DNA of 64,000 bases, from assembly GCF_054482595.1 (NCBI RefSeq), contig NZ_CM137008.1; one strand, 5' to 3'. A program made the translations under genes and the position numbers. Numbering within the stretch: the stretch's first letter is position 1; each line of letters begins with the position of its first letter. The notes beneath the pieces were generated by a model. It was not told the origin of the DNA. It saw only the letters and a list, made by a program, of their open reading frames with translations, and searched no databases. Below, piece by piece: positions 35,474 to 46,021 of the stretch.

Positions 35474-36823
35474 TTGGCGGGTTTTAACATCAAACATTGG
35501 TTTGCAGATGGCGCGTTTCGCACCATTATTCGCAATAGCGCCTGGTTAGGCTCCAGTAATGTCGTGAGCGCTTTGCTGGGGCTGTTGGCGCTCTCGTGTG
35601 CCGGTAAAGGGATGACGCCCGCCATGTTTGGCGTACTGGTGATTGTGCAATCGTACGCCAAGTCGATCAGCGATTTTATTAAGTTTCAGACATGGCAGCT
35701 GGTGGTTCAGTACGGAACGCCAGCCTTGACCAACAATAATCTGCAGCAATTTCGCAATGTCGTCTCATTTTCCTTCTCGCTGGATATCGTCAGCGGCGCG
35801 GTGGCGATTGTCGGCGGCATTGCCTTACTGCCATTCCTTTCCCATTCATTAGGTCTGGATGACCAAAGCTTTTGGCTGGCGGCGCTGTATTGCACGCTCA
35901 TTCCTTCAATGGCTTCCTCCACGCCGACCGGCATTCTGCGTGCGGTAGATCGCTTTGATTTGATTGCTGTACAGCAGGCGACGAAACCTTTTCTGCGCGC
36001 AGCGGGGAGCGTCGCAGCCTGGTATTTTGACTTTGGTTTTGAGGGTTTTGTTATTGCCTGGTACGTGTCGAATCTGGTTGGCGGCACCATGTACTGGTGG
36101 TTTGCCGCGCGCGAATTACGCCGCAGAAATATCCATAACGCCTTCAAATTGAATCTGTTTGAGTCTGCCCGACACATTAAAGGCGCGTGGAGTTTTGTCT
36201 GGTCAACCAACATTGCCCACTCCATCTGGTCGGCGCGTAACTCGTGCAGCACAGTGTTGGTGGGGATCGTGTTAGGACCCGCTGCCGCCGGGTTATTTAA
36301 AATCGCCATGACATTCTTCGACGCCGCCGGAACGCCAGCGGGTTTGCTGGGTAAAAGTTTTTACCCAGAGGTGATGCGTTTAGATCCGCGCACCACCAGA
36401 CCGTGGTTGTTAGGCGTGAAGTCCGGTTTACTGGCGGTCGGAATCGGTATTCTGGTGGCGCTCGCGGTGTTGATCGTCGGCAAGCCGCTCATTTCGCTGG
36501 TGTTTGGCGTTAAGTATCTCGAAGCGTATGACCTGATTCAGGTGATGCTGGGCGCAATTGTGATCTCGATGCTGGGCTTCCCTCAGGAGTCATTGCTATT
36601 GATGGCGGGAAAACAGCGCGCTTTTCTCGTGGCGCAAACCATCGCCTCAATCGGCTACATCGTATTGCTGTTCATGTTCTGTCATCTGTTTGGCGTGCTG
36701 GGAGCAGCGTTTGCTTACTTCGGTGGGCAATGTCTGGACGTGGCGCTCTCGTTAATTCCAACCTTAAAGGCATTTTTTCAGCGCCATTCCTTGCTTTATA
36801 ACGCAGCCGGAGAGAAATCCTGA
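35474..36823 (+). CDS. yghQ: MOP/Wzx-like polysaccharide or lipid flippase family inner membrane protein; start codon uncertain (ORF track begins at a TTG, first in-frame ATG is 46 codons in)
   Basis: 449 aa polytopic membrane protein; 45 bp after yghR; stop overlaps the start of the next ORF (TGATG). Confidence 0.75.
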   Translation: MAGFNIKHWFADGAFRTIIRNSAWLGSSNVVSALLGLLALSCAGKGMTPAMFGVLVIVQSYAKSISDFIKFQTWQLVVQYGTPALTNNNLQQFRNVVSFSFSLDIVSGAVAIVGGIALLPFLSHSLGLDDQSFWLAALYCTLIPSMASSTPTGILRAVDRFDLIAVQQATKPFLRAAGSVAAWYFDFGFEGFVIAWYVSNLVGGTMYWWFAARELRRRNIHNAFKLNLFESARHIKGAWSFVWSTNIAHSIWSARNSCSTVLVGIVLGPAAAGLFKIAMTFFDAAGTPAGLLGKSFYPEVMRLDPRTTRPWLLGVKSGLLAVGIGILVALAVLIVGKPLISLVFGVKYLEAYDLIQVMLGAIVISMLGFPQESLLLMAGKQRAFLVAQTIASIGYIVLLFMFCHLFGVLGAAFAYFGGQCLDVALSLIPTLKAFFQRHSLLYNAAGEKS

Positions 36824-37647
36824 TGATGAGAAAATATTTCCCGCTTGAGGCGAGCGAGCATCTATTTGTTGCGATTGAGGAAGATGATGTTGTTGATGCC
36901 CAGGTCAGTTTGCCGCCGACTATCGCACTAAGTTGTACCACCGAAATCATCCATGATAATTACGCGTTATGCCTGCAATTCTGGCTCAATGGCGTTGATC
37001 GTCAGGAATTACTTCGTTTAATTCGCAAACAAGCCAAAGGCGATGAGCTGACGACAGACGAGCGTAAACAGTTTAAATACATGCGAGCGCGCTACAAGCA
37101 CCTGCGTTTTGCGCAACGGCTGTATTTAAAGAAGCATCAGGCCGGATTTTTATTCGGCAAAACGACCGTTTTTCTGGGACGTTTTCAGGACGGATTTCGT
37201 AACGGTAAGAAAAATATTGTGTCGTATTACGGCAACCTGTTACGAATTTATTTAAGCTCTCCGGTCTGGTCGTTGGTGAACTATTCATTACGCCATAGCC
37301 AGTTAGAAAGCGTAAGCGGTTTTATTGCCTATCGGCAAAAGCAAATGCATGCCCTGAAAGAGATAATTGCCAAACCGCGACTAACCGGCAGGGAATTTCA
37401 TGATGTGCGAAAAATCATCAGCCAGCAGGTTTCTTATTACGACACCTTAAGATCGCTTGATCCTGAAAATAAAGAGGCGTTACAGATTTCCCGTTTCCTC
37501 GCCGCCATTAATGGCCTGATGGGGGATAAACACGACGACATGGTGGCGGATGATATGGAAAACCGCCAGTCGTATGATGCACCGGTGGCGCTGGATAGCG
37601 ATATTCGCCAGCGCTTAGAGCTGCTGATTTCGCGTTTTCCGCTATAA
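36823..37647 (+). CDS. Hypothetical soluble protein, function unknown
   Basis: 274 aa ORF, no predicted TM segment or signal peptide, start overlaps the yghQ stop; no family recognised from sequence alone. Confidence 0.6.
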   Translation: MMRKYFPLEASEHLFVAIEEDDVVDAQVSLPPTIALSCTTEIIHDNYALCLQFWLNGVDRQELLRLIRKQAKGDELTTDERKQFKYMRARYKHLRFAQRLYLKKHQAGFLFGKTTVFLGRFQDGFRNGKKNIVSYYGNLLRIYLSSPVWSLVNYSLRHSQLESVSGFIAYRQKQMHALKEIIAKPRLTGREFHDVRKIISQQVSYYDTLRSLDPENKEALQISRFLAAINGLMGDKHDDMVADDMENRQSYDAPVALDSDIRQRLELLISRFPL

Positions 37648-37655
37648 CCGGAGCA

Positions 37656-38219
37656 ATGATGTCATCTCGTTTGATTATTGCGCTGATTATCATGCTCTTA
37701 GCCCCGGGTGTGCAGGCACACAATTTCGTCACTGGCAAAACGGTTACCCCTGTTTATATTCAGGAAGGCGGCGAGCTGCTTCTGAATAGCGACGACGAAA
37801 TTCACTACCAAAAGTGGAACAGCACACAATTGGCGGGAAAAGTCCGAATTATCCAGTATATCGCCGGGCGTAAGTCGGCGAAGAAAAAGAACTCACTGTT
37901 AATTAAAGCGGTTGAAGCGGCAAACTTTCCGCAGGATCGTTTTCAGCCCACCACCATTGTGAACACTGATGATGCCATCTTTGGTACTGGCTATTTTGTC
38001 GTTGGCAAAATCGAAAAAAATAAACGGCGCTATCCGTGGGCGCAATTCGTTATTGACGGCAATGGACAGGGACGCGTTGCCTGGCGCTTGCCGGAGCAGA
38101 GTTCAACCATTCTGGTGCTGAATAAAGCTGGGCAAATTCAGTGGGCAAAGGACGGCAGCCTGACGCCGGAAGAGGTAGATCAGGTCATTGCGCTGGCGCA
38201 GAAACTGATCAATGAATAA
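37656..38219 (+). CDS. Secreted/periplasmic protein (possibly YtfJ-family-like)
   Basis: 187 aa; cleavable signal peptide MMSSRLIIALIIMLLAPGVQA; Shine-Dalgarno ccggag upstream; family assignment by recollection only. Confidence 0.6.
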   Translation: MMSSRLIIALIIMLLAPGVQAHNFVTGKTVTPVYIQEGGELLLNSDDEIHYQKWNSTQLAGKVRIIQYIAGRKSAKKKNSLLIKAVEAANFPQDRFQPTTIVNTDDAIFGTGYFVVGKIEKNKRRYPWAQFVIDGNGQGRVAWRLPEQSSTILVLNKAGQIQWAKDGSLTPEEVDQVIALAQKLINE

Positions 38220-38249: not shown

Positions 38250-39320
38250 ATGAAGCTGGTTGAACACTACATCATGCGTGGTACGCGCCGTCTGGTGCTG
38301 ATTATCGTCGGTTTTCTGATCTTTATTTTCGCCAGCTACTCCGCACAGCGTTATCTGACCGAAGCGGCAAATGGGACATTAGCACTTGATGTTGTGCTGG
38401 ATATCGTTTTCTACAAAGTGCTGATTGCACTGGAGATGTTGTTACCTGTTGGACTGTATGTGTCAGTTGGCGTGACGCTAGGGCAGATGTATACCGACTC
38501 GGAAATTACCGCTATCTCTGCGGCGGGGGGCAGTCCGGGACGCTTGTACAAAGCCGTTCTTTATCTGGCGATACCGCTAAGTATTTTTGTCACCCTTCTG
38601 TCGATGTATGGTCGTCCGTGGGCTTATGCGCAGATTTATCAACTGGAGCAGCAGTCGCAGTCGGAGCTGGATGTTCGCCAGTTGCGGGCAAAGAAATTTA
38701 ACACTAACGATAACGGACGAATGATCCTTTCGCAGACGGTTGATCAGGATAATAATCGCCTGACTGACGCGCTGATTTATACTTCTACTGCCAATCGAAC
38801 CCGCATTTTCCGCGCCCGTTCGGTTGATGTGGTTGACCCATCACCCGAGAAACCGACCGTTATGTTGCACAACGGCACTGCCTATCTTCTCGATCATCAG
38901 GGTCGTGACGACAACGAACAGATCTACCGTAATCTGCAATTACATCTGAATCCGCTGGATCAAAGCCCTAACGTCAAACGCAAAGCAAAATCGGTCACGG
39001 AGCTGGCGCGCTCCGCCTTTCCTGCCGATCATGCCGAACTGCAATGGCGACAAAGCCGTGGCCTGACCGCATTGTTGATGGCGCTGCTGGCCATTTCATT
39101 AAGTCGGGTAAAACCGCGGCAGGGGCGATTTTCAACGTTATTGCCACTGACGTTGCTGTTTATTGCCATTTTTTATGGCGGCGACGTCTGCCGTACGCTG
39201 GTGGCTAACGGCGCGATTCCTCTCATTCCTGGTTTGTGGTTAGTGCCCGGACTCATGCTAATGGGCCTGCTGATGCTGGTTGCACGCGACTTCACTTTGC
39301 TGCAGAAATTTTCCCGATGA
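38250..39320 (+). CDS. LptF-like permease (YjgP/YjgQ family)
   Basis: 356 aa; N-terminal TM bundle, large periplasmic domain, C-terminal TMs; conserved RxGRxS-type segment (RVKPRQGRFSTLLP) typical of LptF/LptG. Confidence 0.7.
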   Translation: MKLVEHYIMRGTRRLVLIIVGFLIFIFASYSAQRYLTEAANGTLALDVVLDIVFYKVLIALEMLLPVGLYVSVGVTLGQMYTDSEITAISAAGGSPGRLYKAVLYLAIPLSIFVTLLSMYGRPWAYAQIYQLEQQSQSELDVRQLRAKKFNTNDNGRMILSQTVDQDNNRLTDALIYTSTANRTRIFRARSVDVVDPSPEKPTVMLHNGTAYLLDHQGRDDNEQIYRNLQLHLNPLDQSPNVKRKAKSVTELARSAFPADHAELQWRQSRGLTALLMALLAISLSRVKPRQGRFSTLLPLTLLFIAIFYGGDVCRTLVANGAIPLIPGLWLVPGLMLMGLLMLVARDFTLLQKFSR

Positions 39321-40396
39321 ATGTTTTCAGTCGCTATTTAATCCGTCATCTCTTTCTCGGTTTTGCCGCCGCCGCAGGGTTATTGCTGCCGCTTTTTACT
39401 ACCTTCAACCTGATTAACGAACTGGATGATGTCAGCCCGGGCGGTTATCGCTGGACTCAGGCGGTGCTGGTGGTGCTGATGACCTTACCGCGTACACTGG
39501 TCGAACTTTCGCCGTTTATCGCCTTATTGGGAGGGATTGTTGGCCTGGGGCAGTTATCGAAAAACAGTGAGCTTACCGCCATTCGCAGCACGGGGTTTTC
39601 TATCTTCCGTATTGCACTGGTGGCGCTGGTTGCCGGGATATTGTGGACTGTTTCGTTAGGCGCGATAGATGAGTGGGTGGCGTCGCCATTGCAGCAACAG
39701 GCGCTGCAAATCAAATCGACCGCCACCGCGTTAGGGGAGGACGATGACATTACCGGCAATATGCTGTGGGCCAGGCGCGGCAATGAATTTGTGACGGTGA
39801 AATCGCTGAATGAACAGGGCCAGCCGGTGGGCGTGGAGATTTTTCATTATCGTGACGATCTCTCGCTCGAATCCTACATTTATGCACGCAGTGCCACCAT
39901 TGAAGACGACAAAACGTGGATCCTGCATGGTGTGAATCATAAAAAATGGCTGAATGGCAAAGAAACGCTGGAAACATTAGATAATCTTGCCTGGCAATCG
40001 GCCTTCACCAGTATGGATCTTGAAGAGTTATCAATGCCGGGCAATACTTTTTCTGTCCGTCAGCTTAATCATTACATCCATTATTTGCAGGAAACCGGGC
40101 AACCCAGCAGCGAATACCGCCTTGCACTGTGGGAAAAACTGGGGCAACCCATCCTGACCCTGGCGATGATTTTGCTGGCTGTGCCGTTTACCTTTAGCGC
40201 CCCGCGCTCGCCAGGGATGGGTAGCCGTCTCGCTGTAGGCGTCATCGTTGGCTTACTCACCTGGATCAGCTATCAAATCATGGTCAATCTGGGTTTGCTA
40301 TTTGCGTTGAGCGCACCTGTTTTCGCGCTCGGTTTACCGGTAGCGTTTGTGTTGATGGCGTTGAGCCTGGTGTATTGGTATGACAGACAATATTAA
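39317..40396 (+). CDS. LptG-like permease (YjgP/YjgQ family); ORF track start at 39236 is over-extended, with the likely start at the ATG overlapping the upstream stop (ATGA)
   Basis: Translation from MNVFSRYLIRHLFLGF; same architecture as LptG, including a NHYIHYLQETGQ segment comparable to the LptG region around YVKYLKSSGQ. Confidence 0.7.
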   Translation: MNVFSRYLIRHLFLGFAAAAGLLLPLFTTFNLINELDDVSPGGYRWTQAVLVVLMTLPRTLVELSPFIALLGGIVGLGQLSKNSELTAIRSTGFSIFRIALVALVAGILWTVSLGAIDEWVASPLQQQALQIKSTATALGEDDDITGNMLWARRGNEFVTVKSLNEQGQPVGVEIFHYRDDLSLESYIYARSATIEDDKTWILHGVNHKKWLNGKETLETLDNLAWQSAFTSMDLEELSMPGNTFSVRQLNHYIHYLQETGQPSSEYRLALWEKLGQPILTLAMILLAVPFTFSAPRSPGMGSRLAVGVIVGLLTWISYQIMVNLGLLFALSAPVFALGLPVAFVLMALSLVYWYDRQY

Positions 40397-41882: not shown

Positions 41883-42797
41883 TCAAAATAGCCCGTTGCG
41901 TAATGCGTGTTCCAGGCTAATCCCGGGAAACCAATTAATATCTTCAGAAATACGGTTATTACTTGCCGACCAGTCAACATGGGTTAATTCACCCAATTTC
42001 GAGCGGGTCAGCATGGGTTCTTTACCTGCCAGGCGACTCAATGCGGTACTGATATCCGCAAGGCAGGTGAGTACCGGCAGAGGAATACCAACCATTCGCA
42101 CGGAACCACAACGGGCGTCGGCGGCAAGCTGTCGTACGCGCTGCCAGTCATAGCCGCCGGGGACGCCATCGCATAATTCATAGGTTTGCGTCTGTACAGT
42201 TTCGGCGCTTAACCACTGACCCACTGCTTGCGCAAAATCGGTGACGTGCAGGAAAGAGAGTTGTGTATCTGGCGCACCAAGTCGTGGCAGCAGGCCGCGC
42301 AGCATCCAGTCAAACAGCGGTTTTAACTCTTTATCGCCGGGACCATACACGGCTGTCGGGCGAAAAACGCCCAGCGTAATTTTGTCAGCCATTGCAGTCA
42401 GCCGTTGTTCGGCGACGTATTTGGAATTTGCGTACCAGGAGAGTTCGGGATGGCGCGCCGCCAGCGAAGAGATAAACAGAAAACGTTGGCAAAAGCCGCT
42501 CTCTTTTGCTGCTTGCATCAGGCGCAGGCTGCCGTCAACGTTACAGTGGGTAAAAATCTCTTCTTTGTGTCCGCGCACTTGCCCGGCGCAATGGACCACC
42601 GCGCTGGCTCCGGCAACCAGTTCGCTAAGCGAATGTGTATCTTCCAGCGAACCGCGCACCCAAGTAAGATTATCATTGACGTGAGCGCGGGCAGTACGCG
42701 TCAATGCGCGAACGTGAAAGCCGCGGGCGAGCAGGTTATCGATAATATATTTACCGATAAACCCGGTAGCGCCCGTCACCGCGACAGTTTGATTCAT
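41883..42797 (-). CDS. NAD(P)-dependent epimerase/dehydratase-family reductase
   Basis: 304 aa; Rossmann motif VTGATGFIG at the N-terminus. Confidence 0.75.
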   Translation of the reverse strand: MNQTVAVTGATGFIGKYIIDNLLARGFHVRALTRTARAHVNDNLTWVRGSLEDTHSLSELVAGASAVVHCAGQVRGHKEEIFTHCNVDGSLRLMQAAKESGFCQRFLFISSLAARHPELSWYANSKYVAEQRLTAMADKITLGVFRPTAVYGPGDKELKPLFDWMLRGLLPRLGAPDTQLSFLHVTDFAQAVGQWLSAETVQTQTYELCDGVPGGYDWQRVRQLAADARCGSVRMVGIPLPVLTCLADISTALSRLAGKEPMLTRSKLGELTHVDWSASNNRISEDINWFPGISLEHALRNGLF

Positions 42798-44515
42798 GCC
42801 AGGGATTCCTGCACATGAAGACTGGCAGCATAAGCCTTCTGATAACGTTTTTTCGCTTCCGCACGGGCAGGCTTGCCGGAGGACGTTCGGGGAATACTGT
42901 GGGGCGGCAACAGATCGATAGCCGCGGTCACGCCAAATTCGCTTTGGATCCGTGCCGCCAGCGCGTGGATAAGCTGCCCGCGACGTTCTTCATCGCTGAT
43001 CCGACACTGGATCTGCAAAATGATTTTTTCCTGGGCGGTAACAAAAGCAATCGCATCGCCAGAATGAATTTCCGGTTCCTGTTCCGCAATATATTCAATA
43101 TCCTGCGGCCAGATATTACGGCCACGAATAATAATCAGATCTTTAATGCGTCCGGTGACATACAGATAACCGTCCAGCAGATAACCGAGGTCGCCAGTGT
43201 CTAACCAGCCCGTCGCGGCAATCTCGTCTTGCGAAGCCTGGTCGCCAAAGTAACCGCTCATCAGACTGGGACCGGAGATGCAAATATGGCCTACCACACG
43301 TTCCGCGACCGGCATACCTGCTTCATTGCGGATTTCAATACCATGTTCCGGCAACGCTTTGCCGCAGTTGACGAAAGTCGATACGGCGCGTGTCTCTGCA
43401 CCCGGCGCGACGGCTTTACCCTGATATTCGAGGATGTCGCGATCCACTTCGTTAACCACAACCCCGGAGGCTTCATCAGAGAAGCTGACAGCCAGCGCAT
43501 TTTCTGCCAGTCCGTAGCACGGCATGAAAGTTTTATTGTCAAAGTTAACCTGACGGAAACATTCAGCGAATTGATGGAGTTGTTCTGCGGAGATGGGTTC
43601 TGCACCAATACCAGCGACGCGCCAGCAGGAAAGATCCAGTTCAGCGAGATCTTTTTCATTCACGCGGCGCTGGCACAATTCATAGCCAAACGGCGGCGCA
43701 ACGGAAACGGTGCCGCGATTTTTACTGATCAATTTAAGCCATTGCAGAGGACGCATGGCAAAATCCTGAGTGCGCAAATAATCTACTGAAAGCTGCGTGG
43801 CGACCGGGGTCAGGAGAAAGCCGACCAGTCCCATATCATGGTAGAAAGGCAGCCAGGAGACGCAGCGGTCGCCAGGGCGTAATTTAATGCCGTCGTGGCT
43901 TATAGCACGTAGATTAGCCATCACTTCGCGATGGGTGATAATGACGCCACGGGGAAAACGGGTGCTGCCGGAGGTGTACTGGAGGTAGGCGATATCGTTC
44001 GGAACTGGACGCTGGAGCGCAACATCGGCTTCCGGTAATGCCTTATACCAGGCGTGGCTTAATACATGCAATTCGGGGTTGTTATGCGTGGCGGCATTGA
44101 CCAGCGGCAACCACTCATCACCAGTGATAATGGCAGCGGGCTGGCAACTTGCCAGTAAACCCTGCAGTTTGGCGCTCCAGGAATCCCGCTGACCGACGCC
44201 CATTGGAATCGCCAACGGGACGGCGACTAAGCCGGCATACTGGCAGGAAAAAAAAGCCTCTACGAACCCGCTACTGGTTTCGGCAATCAGTGCCACGCGA
44301 TCGCCTTTTTTCAGGTTCAGCGATAACAACCGCTTCGCACCAGCTTCGGCACGCGCTTTTAACGTCTGATATTCCAGTTGATCTTCAAGTTGGCAACGTC
44401 TGTCATAAAAATTCATTCCAGCGCTACTCAGAGCGGCGTAGTCCAAAGCATCAACCAGCGTTGGAAAATCGGCATAGCGCATAGGTAGGGAATGCGTAAA
44501 GATTTTATTAGACAT
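42794..44515 (-). CDS. Fatty-acyl-AMP ligase / acyl-CoA (acyl-ACP) synthetase family; start uncertain (44515 ATG preferred over 44542 TTG and 44482 ATG)
   Basis: About 573 aa ANL-superfamily adenylating enzyme; AMP-binding motif YTSGSTRFPRGV; 4-nt overlap with the downstream reductase. Confidence 0.75.
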   Translation of the reverse strand: MSNKIFTHSLPMRYADFPTLVDALDYAALSSAGMNFYDRRCQLEDQLEYQTLKARAEAGAKRLLSLNLKKGDRVALIAETSSGFVEAFFSCQYAGLVAVPLAIPMGVGQRDSWSAKLQGLLASCQPAAIITGDEWLPLVNAATHNNPELHVLSHAWYKALPEADVALQRPVPNDIAYLQYTSGSTRFPRGVIITHREVMANLRAISHDGIKLRPGDRCVSWLPFYHDMGLVGFLLTPVATQLSVDYLRTQDFAMRPLQWLKLISKNRGTVSVAPPFGYELCQRRVNEKDLAELDLSCWRVAGIGAEPISAEQLHQFAECFRQVNFDNKTFMPCYGLAENALAVSFSDEASGVVVNEVDRDILEYQGKAVAPGAETRAVSTFVNCGKALPEHGIEIRNEAGMPVAERVVGHICISGPSLMSGYFGDQASQDEIAATGWLDTGDLGYLLDGYLYVTGRIKDLIIIRGRNIWPQDIEYIAEQEPEIHSGDAIAFVTAQEKIILQIQCRISDEERRGQLIHALAARIQSEFGVTAAIDLLPPHSIPRTSSGKPARAEAKKRYQKAYAASLHVQESLA

Positions 44516-44878
44516 ATACACCACGAAAAAATTGGATATCAAAAATAAAATGACAATAATGCGGTGGATTATATAGGTATAAAAGATAAATGAGATAGTA
44601 TTTTCATTGGTGTGATATTGAACATTGATTAAAATAATGCTTTAAATCTTAACTCTGTTTATTGTGAATAATATTTAATTTATGAATATATTAAGATAAT
44701 GCCCTGGTGGGTCGCATTAAATCCACAATAGTCATGTTGATCGGCTAACGGTGGCGCTGGTGTATCGTAATTATTCATAAATATTATTTTATTTTTCCTT
44801 ATATTCATTGCGTGGATAGTTAAGGTACCGTCCGTTGCTGTTTATTTTCAGCATTAATTATTTGTTATCCACTAAGCT

Positions 44879-46021
44879 ATGGAACGCGATCTGCTGATGA
44901 TTAAAATTGAAAAAGTAATAAATAAAAACGACTTAAAGGCATTTATCGCTTTTCCGTCATTACTTTATCCCGACGATCCAAACTGGATACCCCCTTTATT
45001 CATTGAACGCAACGAGCATTTGTCTGCGAAAAATCCGGGGACGGACCATATCATCTGGCAGGCGTGGGTGGCAAAAAAAGCGGGGCAGATAGTTGGGCGT
45101 ATTACCGCGCAAATAGATACCTTGCACCGCGAGCGTTACGGCAAAGATACCGGTCATTTCGGCATGATTGACGCCATTGATGATCCGCAGGTTTTTGCCG
45201 CGTTGTTTGGCGCAGCGGAAGCGTGGTTGAAGTCACAAGGTGCAAGTAAGATCAGCGGTCCTTTCAGCCTGAATATCAATCAGGAAAGCGGATTACTGAT
45301 TGAAGGTTTCGATACACCACCCTGTGCGATGATGCCGCACGGTAAACCGTGGTATGCCGCGCATATTGAACAATTGGGTTATCACAAAGGCATTGATTTA
45401 CTGGCGTGGTGGATGCAGCGAACCGATCTCACTTTCTCTCCGGCGCTAAAAAAACTGATGGATCAGGTGCGCAAAAAGGTGACCATTCGCTGCATCAATC
45501 GCCAGCGGTTTGCCGAAGAGATGCAGATCCTGCGTGAGATTTTCAACTCTGGCTGGCAGCACAACTGGGGATTTGTGCCGTTTACCGAACATGAATTCGC
45601 GACCATGGGCGACCAACTTAAATATCTGGTGCCGGACGATATGATCTACATCGCTGAGATTGATTCTGCACCCTGCGCGTTTATTGTCGGCTTGCCGAAC
45701 ATCAACGAGGCGATTGCCGATCTGAACGGATCGCTCTTTCCCTTCGGCTGGGCAAAATTGCTGTGGCGTTTGAAAGTCAGCGGTGTGCGAACTGCGCGAG
45801 TACCGCTGATGGGCGTGCGCGACGAGTATCAGTTCAGCCGCATCGGCCCGGTGATTGCGCTGTTATTGATTGAAGCCTTACGCGATCCGTTTGCCCGCCG
45901 GAAGATCGATGCGCTGGAGATGTCATGGATCCTCGAAACCAATACAGGCATGAATAACATGCTGGAACGCATTGGGGCGGAGCCGTACAAGCGTTACCGA
46001 TTGTATGAAAAGCAGATTTAA
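44879..46021 (+). CDS. yghO: GNAT-like acyltransferase-family protein (intact here; an IS5-disrupted pseudogene in K-12, from memory)
   Basis: 380 aa uninterrupted ORF divergent from the synthase operon across a 336-bp AT-rich region; GNAT assignment is tentative. Confidence 0.65.
   Translation: MERDLLMIKIEKVINKNDLKAFIAFPSLLYPDDPNWIPPLFIERNEHLSAKNPGTDHIIWQAWVAKKAGQIVGRITAQIDTLHRERYGKDTGHFGMIDAIDDPQVFAALFGAAEAWLKSQGASKISGPFSLNINQESGLLIEGFDTPPCAMMPHGKPWYAAHIEQLGYHKGIDLLAWWMQRTDLTFSPALKKLMDQVRKKVTIRCINRQRFAEEMQILREIFNSGWQHNWGFVPFTEHEFATMGDQLKYLVPDDMIYIAEIDSAPCAFIVGLPNINEAIADLNGSLFPFGWAKLLWRLKVSGVRTARVPLMGVRDEYQFSRIGPVIALLLIEALRDPFARRKIDALEMSWILETNTGMNNMLERIGAEPYKRYRLYEKQI

Follow-up and report, generated by a model that had tools for sequence, protein, structure and literature searches.

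An AT-rich divergent control region, probably of two modules, between the aasR operon and yghO in the Escherichia coli sphingolipid cluster

A ceramide gene cluster has reportedly been described in Caulobacter crescentus, and its genes (CC_1162-CC_1165 together with CC_1154) represent the same five enzyme families as a locus of Escherichia coli. The Caulobacter work deals with the enzymes, whereas the subject here is the control region of the E. coli locus, its alleles and its regulation, of which we found no description in the literature on ceramide enzymes. The AT-rich promoter regions known to be bound by H-NS include those of proU and bgl and the divergent csgD-csgB gap; the sslE/T2SS-beta promoter, which lies in the DNA analyzed here, is presumably another. 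Like these regions, the gap between aasR and yghO consists of several hundred base pairs of very AT-rich DNA at the promoters of accessory or conditional envelope genes, is a target of insertion sequences and belongs to a locus whose product goes unseen in standard laboratory growth. It differs from them in that it is known by its composition only, that its flanks have a normal G+C content, that its best match to the H-NS motif carries two mismatches and that its curvature is modest. Horizontal regulatory switching is also said to occur in E. coli, in what are called switched intergenic regions. The aasR-yghO locus resembles these in having near-identical genes (98-99%) around an upstream segment of about 70-75% identity, and in having alleles that are common to several species and whose phylogeny is incongruent. 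Unlike in the switched regions, just the yghO-proximal two thirds are switched here, the aasR-proximal third being ultra-conserved, and the switching is known in this case from sequence alone.

The window, that is the whole stretch of 64,000 nucleotides that was analyzed, is 100% identical to E. coli XH990, an isolate from human urine. What the initial annotation had called a biosynthetic operon is, together with yghO, the already described E. coli sphingolipid cluster, which contains five homologues of the Caulobacter dihydroceramide genes. In BL21(DE3) these genes are named aasR (ECD_02851), epi (ECD_02852), acpR (ECD_02853), spt (ECD_02854) and aca, which is yghO (ECD_02850), and co-expression of the E. 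coli AasR, AcpR and SPT proteins led to the production of 3-oxo-sphinganine (Padilla-Gomez et al. 2022, PMC9386255). In the window they are placed as follows:

42794-44515, minus strand: aasR, fatty acyl-AMP ligase or specialised acyl-ACP synthetase, homologue of ECD_02851, which opens the operon (NCBIfam NF006624 at 873 bits, above the cut-off of 600)
41883-42797, minus strand: cerR/epi, reductase of the NAD-dependent epimerase/dehydratase family (annotation and PMC9386255)
41603-41851, minus strand: acpR, specialised acyl carrier protein (annotation and PMC9386255)
40431-41603, minus strand: spt, serine palmitoyltransferase (NCBIfam NF047599 at 599.5 bits, above the cut-off of 500)
44879-46021, plus strand: yghO, homologue of the Caulobacter acyl-CoA N-acyltransferase (aca, CC_1154; PMC9386255, legend of Fig. 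9), whose start may be Met7 at 44897

As YghO matched no Pfam or NCBIfam model, its assignment rests on PMC9386255. The start of aasR was set at the ATG at 44515 (the GTG at 44524 being possible) because the N-terminus MS(E/N)..STHSLPMRYADF, which is conserved over about 45 species, begins there. RefSeq places this start at 44482 in the present strain and at 44515 in others, and in some species the residue corresponding to 44482 is not Met. For YghO, Met7 (ATG 44897) is the sole start conserved outside Escherichia. Neither aasR nor yghO is preceded by a recognisable Shine-Dalgarno sequence. The genes next to the gap include no regulator, and the nearby glcC is part of the glycolate operon. Adjoining spt, at 35474-38219 and 38250-40396, RefSeq names a second permease pair of the lptF/lptG-like type along with a YtfJ-family protein, two hypothetical proteins and yghQ, a flippase-like protein annotated as "lipopolysaccharide biosynthesis protein"; together they could form a dedicated export route for the sphingolipid product.

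The operon and yghO face away from each other, and the DNA that separates them is the only DNA available for the promoters of both units. Two features describe its composition:

44516-44878, no strand: full aasR-yghO intergenic region, 363 bp with 29.2% G+C, from the aasR ATG at 44515 to the annotated yghO ATG at 44879
44700-44768, no strand: island of 52% G+C in the AT-rich gap, the part richest in indels and most divergent between alleles

The initial annotation had given the region 336 bp, starting at 44543. Its right edge at 44878 is set by the annotated start of yghO; its left edge follows the longest open reading frame, with a TTG at 44542, and has to be moved to the conserved ATG at 44515, which gives 363 bp. 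The gap could measure up to 381 bp if yghO begins at Met7 (ATG 44897). The strong AT-richness that had been claimed was confirmed by the G+C content of 44543-44878, which is 0.292 (70.8% A+T) compared with 0.518 for the whole window and which only 0.18% of the 336-bp windows equal, and the two long AT runs that had been quoted were located at 44629 and 44779. We then ranked the 26 intergenic regions of at least 50 bp in the RefSeq annotation of XH990. With a G+C content of 0.295, against a median of about 0.43, the aasR-yghO gap came third from the bottom, and the only intergenic regions below it were pppA-gspS2 (65 bp) and gss-pitB. Similarly AT-rich intergenic regions (29-31% G+C) were observed at gss-pitB (31221-31511), yghT-yghS (33752-33924) and glcA-sslE (55468-55952). 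The AT-richness of the gap is uneven: the 69-bp island at 44700-44768 has 52% G+C and the stretches flanking it 19% and 27%, so that the G+C content outside the island is about 23%; that of the first 100 nucleotides of yghO is 34%. The flanking genes have a G+C content of 0.52-0.54, which is normal for E. coli, and the locus is therefore not a classic AT-rich foreign island. The gap sequence is present in a single copy per genome and is not a repeated element. An imperfect 22-nucleotide inverted repeat around the island (44667-44688 and 44772-44793) was treated as chance in AT-rich DNA, as were three copies of the direct repeat ATnAnAATAATGC, of which the two within the variable stretch are altered in the common allele.

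To describe the conservation of the gap, nine Escherichia loci were aligned, five of them from complete E. coli genomes (the window included) and the others from representatives of four Escherichia species. The alignment splits the gap sharply at 44608, and the following features were defined on its two sides:

44525-44608, minus strand: conserved aasR-proximal module of 84 bp with 22.6% G+C, candidate aasR promoter and short leader
44568-44573, minus strand: perfect TATAAT -10 hexamer toward aasR, with a weak -35 element (ATCTCA, 44596-44591) and a 17-nucleotide spacer (prediction)
44664-44692, plus strand: best weak sigma-70-like candidate toward yghO, GTGAAT-17-TATATT, in a block common to alleles A and B
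44608-44935, plus strand: hypervariable yghO-upstream patch reaching into the first 19 or so codons of yghO, present here as the rare allele "B", with sharp edges in difference maps

Between Escherichia lineages, 0 to 3 of the 83 positions of 44525-44607 differ, compared with 9-25% of third codon positions in the genes on either side for the same pairs of loci (Fisher p <= 3e-4). The module as a whole diverges by 2.4-3.6% between lineages, 5-7 times less than third codon positions (13-25%). This indicates that the aasR-proximal module is under purifying selection. These 84 or so base pairs, near-constant across Escherichia, would most likely contain the aasR promoter (TATAAT at 44573-44568), with a predicted transcription start near 44561 and a predicted leader of about 40 nucleotides. 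An 18-codon open reading frame in the module was rejected, its substitutions all being amino-acid-changing. No strong promoter toward yghO and no strong -35 element were found in the gap. The candidate at 44664-44692 scores no better than many others in AT-rich DNA, and promoter-like consensus sites numbered 2, compared with 3.2 expected from shuffled sequences. The description of the interval as a divergent control region stands, given the orientation of the two units, the conservation of this arrangement in about 40 species and the constrained 84-bp module with its perfect -10 hexamer, and we are highly confident that it is a promoter-bearing divergent control region with a two-module structure.

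We propose that the gap would act as the common upstream region of two divergent dihydroceramide-synthesis units, one on the minus strand (aasR-cerR-acpR-spt) and one on the plus strand (yghO). The remaining 270 or so base pairs before yghO would be free to vary, with very divergent alleles exchanged by recombination, and the AT-rich gap would nucleate H-NS, perhaps with StpA, so that both units would be kept low in ordinary laboratory growth. This reading as a whole, a shared divergent upstream region of two modules in which H-NS keeps both units low, is the one that we favor, with modest confidence.

AT-rich DNA of such composition is of the kind coated by H-NS in enterobacteria, where ChIP surveys show that stretches of several hundred base pairs with about 23% G+C are usually H-NS-bound. 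As is typical of H-NS regions, the A+T content of the gap is far above the genome average over 363 bp. The 10-bp H-NS site (TCGATAAATT-like) has a single match in the gap, with two mismatches, at 44677-44686, and window-wide the motif was not enriched (79 observed versus 63 expected); a high-affinity nucleation motif is not obligatory for H-NS binding. Predicted curvature is in the 4th percentile at 44501-44650 and near the median in the rest of the gap, as estimated with our own script of a wedge model. The strongest predicted curvature of the whole window was observed in the glcA-sslE gap, around 55780. No H-NS occupancy or hns-mutant data for the locus were found in the literature searched, which included an ETEC H10407 ChIP-seq paper and an H-NS transposon-capture paper; K-12 and O157 Sakai, the usual strains for H-NS ChIP, do not carry the region.

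Amongst complete E. coli genomes, about 84% carry at least part of the locus and about 75% carry the gap intact. In the Sakai stretch examined (L052, NC_002695.2, 3850000-3899999), the pheV island SpLE3 directly borders a truncated pitB pseudogene, and neither glc genes nor a yghO cluster intervene. Four independent insertions, of IS1 or IS5, were found at or beside the gap, each in a different strain (positions are those of the window):

44921: IS5 in a K-12-like strain (L053), truncating yghO, with a deletion back to yghQ
44913: IS1 in strain EH09-18-41 (L054)
45039: IS1 in strain F8 (L055)
about 44264: IS1 within aasR in strain WEM25 (L003)

Different strains have lost the gap or the operon through such insertions and the deletions next to them. 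IS5 insertion is biased to AT-rich, H-NS-bound DNA (PMC11677980). The silencing by H-NS that had been read from the look of the gap is plausible. We count silencing more likely because of the extreme AT content, the AT-rich gap in every species examined and the IS1 and IS5 scars; the H-NS motif, which is not enriched, and the modest curvature do not add to this.

The lipids of BL21(DE3), which carries the cluster on its chromosome, bear on the further claim that the locus is cryptic in the laboratory. With empty vectors or with SPT alone this strain contained no 3-oxo-sphinganine, which was undetectable unless plasmids supplied aasR, acpR and spt (PMC9386255). This profile agrees with a low level of aasR and acpR expression from the chromosome in complex medium at 30 C. 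The chromosomal cerR and yghO genes were, however, suspected of being somewhat active in BL21 (PMC9386255), which argues against complete silence. The 3-oxo-sphinganine controls support the claim indirectly, and the suspected activity of cerR and yghO weakens it. With the composition of the gap, its AT-richness across species, the insertion scars and the BL21 controls taken together, H-NS binding and silencing at the gap appear somewhat more probable than not.

A less probable explanation, although one with several observations on its side, is that the gap is an ordinary AT-rich promoter region without H-NS silencing, in which low or conditional expression would result from the weakness of its promoters and ribosome-binding sites or from the action of a dedicated regulator. 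The gap has no strong -35 elements, neither gene has a recognisable Shine-Dalgarno sequence, the motif and curvature tests were unremarkable and there may be residual activity of chromosomal cerR and yghO in BL21, all of which agree with this explanation. It is also favored by most other Enterobacterales gaps, which contain a conserved block of about 120 nucleotides resembling a specific control element. On the other hand, stretches of about 23% G+C and of this length are usually H-NS-bound, there is no regulator gene beside the gap, and none of the 14 transcription factor consensus sequences scanned (CRP, FNR, Fur, PhoB, PhoP, FadR, LexA, ArcA, IHF, Lrp, OmpR, CpxR, RcsB and IscR) scored above dinucleotide shuffles. 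The idea that the locus is induced by a specific signal gained nothing from these scans, as no known consensus beat the shuffled controls. A FadR-like sequence, CCCTGGTGGGTCGCATT, in the 52% G+C island was rejected because it matches 9 of 13 positions and is equalled by 39% of shuffles.

The conserved block emerged from a wider comparison across Enterobacterales. The divergent aasR-cerR-acpR-spt / yghO order is kept in about 40 species and was seen in Shimwellia, Citrobacter, Pluralibacter, Serratia, Klebsiella indica, Pantoea, Erwinia, Tatumella, Rahnella, Hafnia, Sodalis, Rosenbergiella, Cedecea, Pseudocitrobacter and a Pseudomonas. In all of these 40 or so species the G+C content of the gap is below that of its flanks, by 0.07-0.27. 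Many of the gaps in other genera are 600-1,100 bp long and contain no conserved open reading frame. The block of about 120 nucleotides has an invariant core, AGCATTAAGTGGTAAAA, often followed by AATGCTT (the inverted repeat of AAGCATT), and lies in the gap of at least 20 Enterobacterales species, usually 290-340 nucleotides before yghO (for example L017:5562-5760, with equivalents in L010, L012, L014, L022, L023, L029, L038-L041, L044 and L046-L048). A profile of the block was built from 15 species and, when run with nhmmer, gave matches with E values of 1e-26 to 1e-5 in at least 20 species. It found nothing in any Escherichia gap or in the intergenic region of the window, which indicates that the E. 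coli control region is shorter and different. Consequently, the proposal that the E. coli module GCGGTGGATTATATAGG, about 315 nucleotides before yghO, resembles the enterobacterial box AAGTGGTAAAAAATAG, about 300-330 nucleotides before yghO, was dropped. The consensus RNA structure of the block has 0 pairs.

Three other observations were made on the compared loci. In Shimwellia pseudoproteus (L010, L033) the yghO homologue next to the operon (84% identity) is joined by a second (74%) at another site that lacks the operon. A fluoride riboswitch (RF01734, 45.4 bits, L012:11320-11389) was found at a distance of a few kb from the cluster of Pluralibacter gergoviae and is probably unrelated to it. 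A fragment of YghO with 99% identity was found in a Gram-positive assembly, that of Macrococcus sp. DPC7161 (L049), on a 430-bp contig with a coverage of 0.8, and is almost certainly E. coli contamination.

On the other side of the split, 44609-44878 of the window is only 70-72% identical to other E. coli (28-37% divergence between alleles; the identity to the common allele is about 72-75%), whereas the same pairs of strains are 98-99.5% identical at the 5' end of aasR and 96-98% identical in yghO. When 5,426 complete E. coli genomes were searched, the allele of the window was found at 99% identity or more in 25 of them; 7 genomes had matches at 80-90% and 4,122 at 60-80%. The 25 carriers of allele B came from humans, poultry, pigs, calves, deer, a baboon, an otter and river water. 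A third allele, in strain SCPM-O-B-8794, is 82.6% identical to that of the window and about 63% identical to the common allele. Despite this divergence the G+C content of every allele is 30-34%. Over 44609-44878 the window shares 94.8% identity with the unclassified Escherichia sp. E1V33 while the flanks group with E. coli, and in E. whittamii the grouping of patch and flanks is reversed relative to the window. The distribution of the patch alleles is incongruent with the phylogeny of the flanks.

The AT-richness of an unconstrained stretch could come from mutational bias. According to an explanation that we regard as unlikely, the AT-richness on the yghO side would be a neutral by-product of unconstrained drift to A+T and of recombination, the 84-bp aasR module being the only functional part of the gap. 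Such drift would account for the 28-37% divergence of the right part between alleles, with its indels, for the lack there of a conserved open reading frame, RNA family or RNA structure, and for the 52% G+C island being the least conserved part. The promoter of yghO must however sit somewhere in this stretch, and several blocks, among them 44657-44696 and 44797-44841, are common to the aligned alleles A and B. Moreover, E. coli and E. whittamii are 93-95% identical in allele A, and in a comparable pair the third codon positions of yghO differ by 13-14%. Since the divergence within allele A does not exceed that of the third codon positions, each allele is not simply drifting.

A hidden small gene or small RNA in the gap is very improbable, because the 42-codon minus-strand open reading frame (44808 to 44680) that is open here, and that has a 31-codon version with a similar C-terminus in the common allele, carries a frameshift in Escherichia sp. 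MOD1-EC7003, is disrupted in allele C and is unrelated between alleles in its N-terminal half, and because no credible Rfam match was obtained and folding was no better than that of shuffled sequences. This reading frame was accordingly rejected, being kept in neither allele A' nor allele C. The lone Rfam match over 43500-46000, also discarded, was to a plant microRNA model, at 20.5 bits where the gathering score is 249 (E = 0.65), and RNA folding of the yghO-side and aasR-side leaders gave z = -0.33 and z = -1.35, respectively, values not beyond those of shuffles.

We thus return to the shared divergent region of two modules with H-NS keeping both units low. An extension of it, which we consider quite improbable, is that the patch at 44608-44935 would be an old polymorphism across Escherichia species, moved by recombination, that sets strain-specific expression of the ceramide synthase. 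Acting jointly with a lifting of H-NS silencing under some condition of the host or the environment, it would decide whether a given strain makes sphingolipids.

As an AT-rich divergent promoter region, the gap is an element of an ordinary type, set in a locus of interest. Its added interest comes from the locus that it controls and from its division into a frozen module on the aasR side and a swapped cassette on the yghO side. It offers a natural experiment, in which one module is frozen by selection and its neighbour is swapped between lineages. To our knowledge, E. coli is generally regarded as making no sphingolipids, and ceramides are lipids that act on host signalling. If the AT-rich gap keeps these genes quiet, relieving the silencing would reveal whether commensal and pathogenic E. 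coli make ceramides.
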